From contig CAYSHM010000014.1 in the NCBI GenBank assembly GCA_964430885.1, positions 1 through 64,000 of the forward strand: a DNA stretch of 64,000 nucleotides, read 5' to 3'. The notes beneath the pieces were generated by a model. The model worked only from the letters and a program-made list of their open reading frames with translations, was not told the origin of the DNA and ran no database searches. Source of the DNA: an uncultured archaeon. Lineage in GTDB: Archaea > Thermoplasmatota > Penumbrarchaeia > JASLWR01. Shown here in pieces: positions 9,060-45,516 of the stretch. Within the stretch, counting starts at the first letter, position 1. Each line of letters starts with the position of its first letter. A program made the position numbers and the translations under genes.

Positions 9060-9208
9060 TCTCGATATTCTTCATTTTATTTTTGATATATATTCTGCGC
9101 TCTATCATAACTGATAGGTTCATTTTTTCTTCTTCGACATTAAGAAACGAAAGATATATCCCTGAGATATGGGTATATCGAGAAATCGTTTTTAAAGGAA
9201 TACACGAA

Positions 9209-9327
9209 GCAGGGATAGCCAAGCATGGTCAACGGCGCAGGACTTAAGATCGCAAACACCCCAGGGTTGTGCCGCGCTGAGACATCCTGTCCTCAGTGGT
9301 TCGTGGGTTCGAATCCCACTCCCTGCA
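9209..9327 (+). tRNA. tRNA-Leu(UAA) with a 35-nt canonical intron (9249-9283)
   Basis: Acceptor stem GCAGGGA/TCCCTGC plus discriminator A; anticodon arm CAGGA-CT-TAA-G|A-TCCTG split at 37/38; BHB central helix CTTA/TGAG; long variable arm; T arm GTGGG-TTCGAAT-CCCAC; CCA not encoded. Confidence 0.93.
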
Positions 9328-9426
9328 TCTATTCTTATCAAGTAAGCAAATCAAAAAATACATTCAATTCATAATCCAAAATGCACTCGTTATCACATGA
9401 AAAATCAAGGCGGAACGGTGAAATAA

Positions 9427-10449
<1,023 letters not shown>

Positions 10450-44932: not shown

Positions 44933-45006
44933 ATAAAAAGAACTTTCTTTTCAATCTACACTATTATCACAACTAAGTATACTAGCTTTCGTGTGAGGAA
45001 TAATAT

Positions 45007-45516
45007 ATGGCAAAACTTCCAAAAGATATTCTGAATAAAAGGGTTTCACAAGAGATTGCATTAGCAAAGAGAAAACTGCTGCATATAATCGCAATTGAGG
45101 AGGGTGTGATCGAAGATTTTCCTGTTTCTTTGATGGTTACTCTCATTGATGTCGCAGGCCCGGTCTGGAGAGGAGAAGAATTATCTCATAAAAAAACCCA
45201 TCAATTTGAGATAACCATTACCGAGAGCTATCCTTATGAGAAACCTATTGTGAAGTGGAACAGTGAAATATTCCATCCAAATATCAAACTTCCAGAGGAT
45301 GGAGGTGATGTCTGTACTAGACTGCTTGACGGTTGGGGATTTCATTCCAATATTCTAGCTTTCATTAAGGGTGTCGAATCCCTCCTTACCAATCCCAATC
45401 CTCGATCTCCCTGGGGCACTGATTCCTGCACATCTGCAGCCCTTTTCTTCAATACACATGATTATGAACCCCCTGAAGGTAGGATTGATGACATGGGTCC
45501 AAAAATTGTAAAATAG
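45007..45516 (+). CDS. Ubiquitin-conjugating enzyme E2 (UBC fold) with intact catalytic Cys
   Basis: KR..QE N-helix, FEITITESYPYEKPIV.W, IFHPNI....GGDVC..LL..W, I...GVESLLTNPNPRSP. Confidence 0.88.
   Translation: MAKLPKDILNKRVSQEIALAKRKLLHIIAIEEGVIEDFPVSLMVTLIDVAGPVWRGEELSHKKTHQFEITITESYPYEKPIVKWNSEIFHPNIKLPEDGGDVCTRLLDGWGFHSNILAFIKGVESLLTNPNPRSPWGTDSCTSAALFFNTHDYEPPEGRIDDMGPKIVK

Follow-up and report, generated by a model that had tools for sequence, protein, structure and literature searches.

What does a ubiquitin-conjugating enzyme (E2) do in an archaeal genome region that encodes no modifier for it to conjugate? This question is raised by the stretch analyzed here, C14:1-64000 of the assembly (all 64,000 nucleotides are called the window below), in which a first-pass annotation had found a eukaryote-like E2 gene outside a canonical ubiquitin operon and had taken it as a sign of an uncharacterized conjugation route. 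The assembly (G000) is a metagenome-assembled genome (MAG) of a marine archaeon, comprising 3.13 Mb in 44 contigs, with 91.6% completeness and 1.4% estimated contamination. A look-up of sequencing runs listed four DNA runs, all from one study of marine metagenomes and two of them possible sources of this DNA, and no RNA runs. We find that the same genome holds partner genes on other contigs, and we read the window E2 as an active paralog in a dispersed ubiquitin-like modifier (Ubl) system with a cognate activating enzyme (E1) and Ubl, a reading to which we give a probability of roughly 0.8.

The window gene encodes a UBC-fold E2

The window protein matched the UQ_con profile of Pfam (PF00179) over profile positions 43-122 of 140 with 52 bits (E = 7.5e-14), well above the curated cut-off of 27 bits. 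A phmmer comparison with all PDB sequences returned UBE2A/Rad6 as the top matches (E = 1.2e-10), and in the HMMER alignment the catalytic HPN motif and Cys of UBE2A fell on H90-P91-N92 and Cys103, separated by three gap columns. The spacing from N92 to C103 is 10 residues in the window E2 compared to 7 in UBE2A. The motifs named in the annotation, including the extended spacing before the Cys, could thus be read in the translation and aligned.

These positions are strongly conserved. HPN, G100, and P130 did not vary among 57 relatives, while Cys103 and Trp110 were invariant in 14 close relatives and present in at least 90% of the 57. Within the YPYEKP loop, Y75 and P80 were invariant in the 14, and Y75, P76, and P80 were found in at least 90% of the 57. 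The linker residues P96, G99, and G100 and the residues P130, N131, P132, and P135 of the LLTNPNPRSP motif likewise showed no variation in the 14 relatives.

An AlphaFold 2 (AF2) model computed with the 57 relatives in the alignment reached a predicted local distance difference test (pLDDT) value of 90.3 and a predicted template-modeling score of 0.84. It consists of helices at residues 6-23, 116-128, and 139-150 and strands at residues 27-30, 40-55, 58-71, and 81-84, which is the UBC order of a helix, four strands, and further helices. When the model was compared with the PDB using Foldseek, the approximately 45 top matches shown were all eukaryotic E2s (probability 1.00, template-modeling (TM) scores 0.53-0.72). 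The profile score, the UBE2A alignment, and the structural matches agree with the UBC signature noted before, and the window open reading frame (ORF) is a genuine UBC-fold E2.

The enzyme is class-I-like. Its best solved matches are eukaryotic class I E2s (Rad6/UBE2A, E of about 1e-10), with which it shares the HPN, Cys, Trp, and PNP motifs and the fold. It differs from them in that identity in structural alignments is only about 20-26%, the match spans residues 61-154, and the N-terminal half, with helix 1 and a long beta-hairpin (residues 40-71), is divergent, with the TM-scores given above.

As the best PDB matches were eukaryotic and the MAG has an estimated contamination of 1.4%, the E2 contig might be eukaryotic or otherwise foreign DNA that was binned by mistake. 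The closest relatives, however, lie on Thermoplasmatota contigs (75-76% identity), where Mut7-C and dnaJ, and these alone among the flanking genes, recur upstream of the E2 in the closest named relatives. When one genome per prokaryote species was searched, at least 470 stretches encoded a relative of the window E2, and the best 80, whose flanks we studied, all came from archaeal MAGs, most of them labeled Thermoplasmata, Thermoplasmatota, or Methanomassiliicoccales. The 14 control genomes gave zero matches to the window E2, and nucleotide composition was uniform along the window. An assembly artifact is therefore scarcely credible. Among 1.84 billion cluster representatives, an exhaustive HMMER search found 15 relatives at E <= 1e-30, 53 at E <= 1e-10, and 686 at E <= 1e-3; the general E2 superfamily begins beyond the 53.

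The partner genes are dispersed over the same genome

The annotation had also stated that no Ubl, E1, JAB, or small RING gene lies in the window. Whole-genome profile searches placed the ThiF matches on C8 and C17, the best ubiquitin-like match on C1, the JAB matches on C1 and C18, and the ThiS match on C8, and the RING-family profiles gave zero matches on C14, so this statement holds for the window, and so does the position of the E2 outside a ubiquitin operon, with its partners on C1, C17, and C18. What does not hold is the status of an orphan. A phmmer census of all ORFs of at least 40 amino acids (aa) showed that this genome has two E2s and two JAB proteins but only a single Ubl and a single C17-type E1. 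That an E2 looks "solo" within 64 kb is thus weak evidence of an orphan enzyme.

The second E2, on C18, has 170 aa, is 54% identical to the window E2, and lies directly 5' of a tandem-JAB gene. The Ubl gene on C1 encodes 80 aa with the C terminus ...LELIPDPEGGF, near which there is no Lys or Arg, and adjoins the gene of a 417-aa protein whose JAB domain is C-terminal. Against the Ubl, the Pfam ubiquitin model scored 17.3 bits, below its cut-off of 25.4, and a profile of 20 Ubl orthologs found ubiquitins as its top PDB matches, albeit weakly (single ubiquitin, E = 0.012-0.15). The JAB model PF01398 matched once on C1 and twice on C18 with 47-50 bits (cut-off 22.5), so that the domains fit the eukaryote-type model better than Prok-JAB (28-34 bits). 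The C1 JAB protein also has a 260-residue N-terminal region rich in Lys, Glu, and Ser, which gave zero family matches in the profile scans made.

The E1-like protein of the ThiF family is encoded by an isolated gene on C17 and has 286 aa. Its PDB matches are led by UBA2 (6.8e-27), UBA3 (1.4e-26), and UBA1 (2.6e-26), followed by MoeB (3.9e-17) and ThiF (2e-15); the adenylation domain is thus nearer to UBA2/UBA3/UBA1 than to MoeB. C214 in an RFSCTG loop is invariant among 29 orthologs, and C195, C198, C280, and H283 are candidate zinc ligands that are invariant in the 29 sequences.

Each of the parts on C1, C14, C17, and C18 is separated from the contig ends by over 10 kb. E1, Ubl, E2, and JAB genes are therefore not gathered in one operon in this genome. 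A complete ordinary ubiquitin system elsewhere in the genome, which the annotation had named as an explanation that would do away with its proposal, is present in substance, though as dispersed parts instead of one operon.

In relatives, the same gene families form an operon around the E2

We searched the flanks of the E2 in the 80 Thermoplasmatota loci with the proteins of this genome and found that E1-like, Ubl, E2, and JAB genes form a conserved cluster in which all are read in the same direction. JAB genes flanked the E2 in 74 loci, Ubl genes in 67, and E1 genes in 48. Once contig ends were allowed for, the counts were 69/75 for JAB, 62/72 for Ubl, and 40/61 for E1. The four genes occurred together in 38 of 57 loci, and most of the remaining 19 retained Ubl-E2-JAB without a nearby E1. 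Of the 67 Ubls, 46 end in GG (...PDPEGG), 17 carry one residue beyond GG, and 4 carry 7 to 15 residues beyond it.

These clusters bear directly on the route proposed in the annotation, in which a SAMP/MoaD-type modifier would be charged onto an orphan E2 by a UbaA/MoeB-type E1, or the E2 would act without an E1. Such a pair does exist in the genome, as on C8 the gene of a 244-aa MoeB/ThiF-type E1 directly adjoins that of a ThiS/MoaD-type protein of 81 aa that ends in GG, and no partner gene lies near the window E2. However, a dedicated Ubl, an E1-like enzyme, and JABs are present, and the same families flank the E2 in the 38 of 57 fully flanked loci. The E1s of the operons match the C17 protein with E-values of 1e-64 to 1e-105, and the C8 MoeB/ThiF-type protein with only 1e-14 to 1e-26. 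Because the same genome holds the Ubl, the E1-like enzyme, and the JABs, neither a SAMP/UbaA nor an E1-independent route is needed, and because the E2 family is strictly paired with its own E1 and Ubl families, both are disfavored; we consider either very unlikely. Haloferax SAMPylation resembles the system described here in its beta-grasp modifier ending in GG, its E1-like activation, and its removal by a JAMM protease, and a MoeB/SAMP-like pair is found in this genome too. It differs in that the E2 family here is tightly linked to a Ubl and an E1 of its own, which are not those of the ThiS/MoeB pair, whereas sampylation in Haloferax proceeds with neither E2 nor E3 (PMC11354881).

Other Thermoplasmatota families have two further types of E2 cluster (L114, L115, and L118; L113, L116, and L117), with E2s of higher UQ_con score (71-80 bits in five of six cases). 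The first type reads E1 (413-419 aa)-E2-JAB. The second reads Ubl-E2 fusion (220-250 aa)-JAB-short E1, after which come small membrane proteins and a protein of 790-830 aa.

E2-JAB fusions, in which a long C-terminal part matches JAB, were seen in L026 (691-aa ORF), P0035 (682 aa), and L105 (G005:C84, 692-aa frame), the last one in a class relative with seven E2 matches. In L014, tandem E2 genes encode 170 and 172 aa (9198-10303), and the same MAG has E2s on two other contigs (L026 and L067). An E2 match with one in-frame TGA (L111), which could be a broken copy or reflect an error in sequencing, adjoins the genes of a 323-aa RING-finger protein and an E2-like-JAB fusion.

The E2 was duplicated within the class, and the unlinked copy is under selection

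Three of three relatives from the same family carry both E2 types, with 73-76% and 52-55% identity to the window E2. In these relatives, the window-type E2 lacks partners and the C18-type E2 adjoins a JAB gene, and each genome has one Ubl (87-91% identical) and one E1 (69-73%), both on other contigs. Because the three relatives show the same arrangement, the E2 duplication and the gene dispersal are traits of the family, not accidents of assembly. Thus, the E1-Ubl-E2-JAB operon of many relatives is dispersed in this family, its E2 is duplicated, and the window gene is the duplicate without linkage.

We computed a maximum likelihood tree of 95 E2s, rooted on the Ubl-E2 fusion type, by a quick search with branch support from Shimodaira-Hasegawa-like approximate likelihood ratio tests (SH-aLRT) only, without bootstraps. 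The window E2 and its three orthologs form a clade (SH-aLRT 99), joined by a copy from another family of the class (94). Together these are sister (90) to a clade of the C18 copy and its orthologs. From this topology, the duplication is placed inside the class. A class relative, G005, still has a compact E1-Ubl-E2 stretch on one contig in addition to six further E2 matches.

The loss of linkage to all partner genes could also mean that the window copy is a decaying or noncatalytic duplicate, either a regulator resembling a ubiquitin E2 variant (UEV) or a pseudogene in the making. A20, K94, and R105 are the only residues by which the solo clade differs from the JAB-linked copy as well as from a consensus of 54 operonic E2s, and two of these clade-specific changes, K94 in place of an otherwise invariant M and R105, flank the active site. 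However, the window E2 keeps HPN, Cys103, W110, and the PNP motif in an open full-length frame, its AF2 model is confident, and orthologs are retained in all three family relatives. The ratio of nonsynonymous to synonymous substitution rates (dN/dS) was 0.026 between the orthologs L007 and L066, the sole pair with unsaturated synonymous sites; those of the window gene itself are saturated against all three orthologs. On this substitution pattern, the solo copy is under purifying selection, and decay or loss of catalysis is a most improbable explanation. Of the statement that an apparently active E2 in a Thermoplasmatota genome implies an uncharacterized route, the first half stands, as the catalytic motifs are intact and activity is predicted; the second half is not supported.

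The E2 family is widespread in the phylum and unlikely to belong to a defense module

Archaeal ubiquitin-type E1/E2/E3 cascades have been studied in Caldiarchaeum and Asgard archaea and serve as an argument that the eukaryotic system arose in archaea. A related cascade is widespread in a third, distant phylum: in genomes sampled evenly across Thermoplasmatota, PF00179 was found in 78 of 301, and in 57 of the 214 of high quality. The matches are mostly single-copy and depend on the family, with 11/11 genomes in one (f10) and 22/36 in another (f11) compared to 0/24 and 0/21 elsewhere.

This distribution helps to assess whether the genes might be an antiviral defense module, an archaeal counterpart of bacterial Bil or CBASS Cap2/Cap3 of which the solo E2 would be a spare part. 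The four activities Ubl, E2, JAB, and E1 are shared with both, and the gene set equals the content of BilABCD (PMC11354881). In other Thermoplasmatota a Ubl-E2 fusion, a JAB gene, and an E1 gene even form a cluster in that order, and generic PADLOC models matched the E1 (E = 2e-10) and the JAB (E = 1e-6). For the window E2, by contrast, the best PADLOC match (library of 2023) was insignificant (E = 0.0087, 12.7 bits), and the C18 E2 and the Ubl had none in PADLOC-DB 2.0 (2023), which may lack Bil models. The window E2 is of the UQ_con/HPN type, whereas BilB carries a CEHH motif (PMC11354881). The E2 is near-universal in some Thermoplasmatota families, Ubl identity across the family of the present genome is 87-91%, the flanking genes are housekeeping genes, and the distribution looks vertical. 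The defense explanation is disfavored on these four grounds, namely, the E2 type, the PADLOC results, the vertical-looking distribution, and the housekeeping context, and we regard it as unlikely.

RING-fold tails of giant membrane proteins as candidate E3s

No small stand-alone RING gene (srfp) was found beside any component of the system, and its absence from the window had been noted before. RING-fold domains occur elsewhere in the genome, in larger proteins. Genome-wide, zf-RING_2 gave 13 matches below its cut-off; two proteins passed the Pfam cut-off of Prok-RING_1, one of which also passed that of zf-RING_2. The fingers follow the consensus C-x2-C-x12-C-x-C-x4-H-x2-C-x6-C-x2-C, with the eight ligands invariant in 10 domains. 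A RING-tail profile built from ten domains detected 14 domains in 11 proteins (309-1622 aa) at E < 1e-3, 10 of the 14 being its own training rows. An AF2 model of the 48-residue domain had a pLDDT of 87.5, and its top Foldseek matches were nearly all RING E3 domains (RNF165, RNF12, and RNF38; RING-H2), with TM-scores of 0.54-0.76 and root-mean-square deviations of approximately 2-3 A. The E-values, from 4e-3 upward, are modest because the domain has only 48 residues. The fingers thus combine eight Cys/His ligands in cross-brace spacing with a predicted RING fold.

Most carriers of these fingers have 1000-1600 aa and begin with a hydrophobic segment followed by extracellular-type domains, including Laminin-G (Laminin_G_3), beta-helix/NosD, fn3, cadherin-like, and BNR domains. 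Between these and the C-terminal finger comes a second hydrophobic segment, at a distance of 50-350 residues from the finger. Carriers include proteins of 386 aa (C1), 1088 aa (C5), and 1535 aa (C4). By a simple hydropathy scan, the carriers read as type I membrane proteins with cytoplasmic RING tails. The giant family (loci L119-L124 and L092) ends in one or two C-terminal C4HC3 RING-fold fingers.

Three observations in relatives tie the fingers to the E2 system. A cluster in G040 (L125) reads RING-tailed protein-E1-3155-aa RING-tailed protein-Ubl (GG+G)-E2-JAB. A RING-tailed ORF abuts the E2 in 5 of the 80 loci, representing approximately three independent lineages, and in three of the five it ends 4 nt before the E2 start. 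Across 41 relatives, RING matches numbered 17-27 in the four genomes of the family, with two E2s each, 31 in G005, with seven E2s, and 8 in G010, with five E2s, compared to 0-1 in each of 24 genomes from a sister family that lacks E2s.

We also modeled the window E2 in complex with a RING tail and two zinc ions. The score was 0.75, compared to 0.45 for the best of three controls; the runs agreed in at least 95% of contacts, and the partner had a pLDDT of at least 83. The mark applied here is attained by 58 of 80 solved complexes and by 2 of 110 mismatched pairs, a rough calibration since our models used their own alignments and zinc. The pass may partly reflect likeness to solved RING-E2 complexes. 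On the RING side, the modeled contact involves the loops around the first and last ligand pairs; on the E2 side it includes His65, which is invariant in the 14 close relatives and found in at least 90% of the 57.

A proposed pathway and the evidence that weighs on it

Joining these parts, the best-supported pathway, an ordinary conjugation relay native to Thermoplasmatota, would run as follows. The 80-aa Ubl of C1 (...LIPDPEGG-F) would be cut to its terminal GG by the adjacent JAB/MPN+ protease of eukaryotic type. The compact, single-domain E1-like enzyme of C17 would adenylate the Ubl and probably carry it on its loop Cys (RFSC214TG), from which it would be handed to Cys103 of the window E2 or to the C18 paralog. 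The window E2 would thus share one E1 and one Ubl with its C18 paralog. The charged E2 would discharge the Ubl onto lysines, possibly aided by the RING-fold zinc fingers, most of which sit on the cytoplasmic tails of the giant type I membrane proteins, and the JAB proteins may also reverse the mark. To the participation of the RING tails as E3s we give about an even chance.

Several points weigh against this reading. Fold, motifs, paralogy, co-occurrence, the operon of relatives, and purifying selection are observed; we infer each biochemical step, which E1 and Ubl charge the window E2, and that RING tails act as E3s. The E1, Ubl, and RING genes are physically unlinked to the window E2 in its own genome. 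The E1 has neither a separate catalytic-Cys domain nor a ubiquitin-fold domain (UFD), the PDB alignment of its 286 aa ending at the adenylation domain, and canonical E1s recruit E2s through the UFD. Most of the RING-like domains score below the Pfam cut-offs (21-25 bits compared to 27.3), and 15 of the 24 sister-family genomes that lack an E2 still hold one RING-like match. RING counts rise together with E2 counts, which is no more than suggestive, as kin are not independent. Last, one control of the complex model itself reached the 0.45 given above, and the modeled contact falls on the beta-sheet face of the E2 (residues 27-33, 43-47, 53, 62-66, and 85-87). Solved RING-E2 pairs meet at helix 1, loop 4, and loop 7 of the E2, and the modeled contact is off this surface. 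The complex model thus lends weak support to a RING-E2 contact but does not back its geometry.

A more far-reaching possibility, which we hold to be doubtful, is that this class of Thermoplasmatota, far from Asgard archaea, has begun to diversify its ubiquitin-like system much as eukaryotes did, by E2 duplication (two here and up to seven in a class relative) and by RING multiplication on the cytoplasmic tails of giant type I surface proteins (14-31 matches per genome). The unlinked window E2 might then be specialized for a subset of the membrane RING tails in a receptor-coupled ubiquitylation network. If so, the network could serve the turnover or sorting of surface proteins, for example, in an archaeon without known endomembranes.

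Comparison with known archaeal systems

A system of ubiquitin, E1-like, E2-like, srfp, and Rpn11 genes in Caldiarchaeum subterraneum was reportedly described by Nunoura in 2011. The system described here is alike in its UBC-type HPN/Cys E2, a modifier precursor with residues beyond GG, a JAB/Rpn11-type protease beside the modifier, an E1-like adenylating enzyme, and RING-fold domains in the genome. The Caldiarchaeum proteins have been reconstituted in vitro as a relay from Ubl to E1 to E2, as described by Hennell James in 2017 (PMC5654768) and Fuchs in 2018 (PMC6043591). The two systems differ in several respects. The E1 here is a single adenylation domain of 260-300 aa with a loop Cys, unlike that of Caldiarchaeum, which has been modeled on the NEDD8 E1 and comprises active as well as inactive Rossmann folds, a Cys-containing domain, and a UBL domain (PMC5654768). 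In most relatives here the Ubl extends 0-1 residue past GG, compared to 9 in Caldiarchaeum (PMC6043591). The RING fingers sit on giant membrane proteins, with no small stand-alone operon RING gene, whereas Caldiarchaeum has srfp. Also, three residues are inserted ahead of the Cys in the E2 here, and this genome has dispersed genes and a duplicated E2.

In Thermoplasmatota, E2s have been seen before. A "Ca. Thermoplasmatota E2" clade of non-Asgard archaeal proteins, derived from InterPro and based on the UBC core PF00179, stands deep in the archaeal E2 clade of an E2/UEV tree (bioRxiv 10.1101/2023.07.25.550441), and the window E2 most likely belongs to it. In the portions of the preprint that present the tree, these E2s are tips only, without operon, Ubl/E1/JAB, paralogs, or RING tails. 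One single-cell genome of Marine Group II has been reported to encode RING and deubiquitinase (DUB) domains (PMC4327156). Our search of the literature, outside of which many subscription papers lay, found no description of a Thermoplasmatota E1-Ubl-E2-JAB operon, of the minimal E1, of the E2 paralogs, or of the RING-tailed proteins.

The main interest of the system lies in its breadth in a non-Asgard phylum and in the joint growth of E2 and RING repertoires, which here occurs within one lineage and alongside a minimal single-domain E1 with a UBA1/2/3-like adenylation domain. The proteins are compact and thus tractable for asking how an E1 without a UFD hands its Ubl to an E2. They also raise a second question, whether such systems generally tend to diversify their E2s and E3s, in which case this would not be an event specific to eukaryotes.

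Features and neighborhood of the window E2

Table 1. Positions of the E2 gene, its motifs, and other features. Positions without a contig prefix are those of the window or, where a locus is named, of that locus.
Feature	Position	Strand	Basis
E2 (UBC) gene, unlinked "solo" paralog, 169 aa plus stop, ATG start	45007..45516	+	ORF list
Candidate Shine-Dalgarno-like purine stretch GTGAGGA, 7 nt 5' of the ATG, in the 74-nt dnaJ-E2 gap	44993..44999	+	read from sequence
YPYEKP loop, residues 75-80, corresponding to E2 loop 4	45229..45246	+	translation
HPN motif, residues 90-92, within FHPNI (89-93)	45274..45282	+	sequence, alignment to UBE2A
HPN-to-Cys linker IKLPEDGGDV, 10 residues, 3 more than in UBE2A; family signature	45283..45312	+	HMMER alignment
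Cys103, codon TGT, predicted thioester-forming catalytic Cys	45313..45315	+	aligned to UBE2A Cys
Trp110, conserved Trp past the active site	45334..45336	+	conservation in relatives
LLTNPNPRSP motif, residues 126-135	45382..45411	+	translation
DUF7121 protein, 289 aa	45649-46518	-	
TPR/zinc-finger protein, 469 aa	46731-48140	-	
Giant surface-type protein, 1589 aa	30022-34791	+	
Giant RING-tailed family in G000, two tandem neighbors	C4:123046-132414		
Giant RING-tailed family in G000	C24:16931-21637		
Giant RING-tailed family in G000	C24:27889-32286		
Giant RING-tailed family in G000	C3:115116-119984		
Giant RING-tailed family in G000	C5:1366-4632		
Giant RING-tailed family in G000	C32:3451-7143		
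Giant RING-tailed family in G000	C1:201233-202393		
Giant RING-tailed family in G000	C25:8646-9767		
C1 JAB protein (L003 128-1381)	G000:C1:22983-24236	-	
RING-tailed protein/E1/Ubl/E2/JAB cluster (L125)	G040:C3:111000-130000		
E2 match with in-frame TGA (L111)	G005:C47:5624-6097		

The neighbors of the window E2 are housekeeping or unrelated genes. Upstream lie genes for a radical-SAM protein, RibD_C, a Mut7-C RNase, and DnaJ, and downstream those for a DUF7121 protein, a protein with tetratricopeptide repeats (TPR) and a zinc finger, and an OPT transporter. As dnaJ and the E2 gene are adjacent, with a gap of 74 nt, a dnaJ-E2 co-operon was considered and rejected, because a 550-aa ORF separates the two genes in the two closest named relatives and the pair thus has no conserved link. 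This ORF we take to be a urocanase from its N-terminal sequence.

The DUF7121 protein (E = 3e-38) is rich in Lys and Glu, coiled-coil-like, and encoded convergently with the E2; it was not found beside the E2 in the flanks of relatives. The TPR/zinc-finger protein has N-terminal TPR repeats, a low-complexity stretch rich in Gln and Pro, a zinc finger, and an acidic C terminus. Its eight-Cys finger reads C-x2-C-x12-C-x2-C-x4-C-x2-C-x15-C-x2-C. As a candidate E3 this protein was rejected: its FYVE, B-box, and IBR matches were weak (E = 2e-3 to 7e-3), and zf-RING_2 gave E = 0.64. Nor do we count it as part of the system, as it lacks a match to the RING-tail profile and is missing from the E2 flanks of relatives. 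It has paralogs on C18, C3, and C10, possibly through the TPR part alone. Farther upstream, the 1589-aa protein combines Kelch/beta-propeller-like and PKD domains with a C-terminal double zinc ribbon (residues 1466-1521), which is not a RING, and represents a further giant surface-type protein with a zinc-binding tail.

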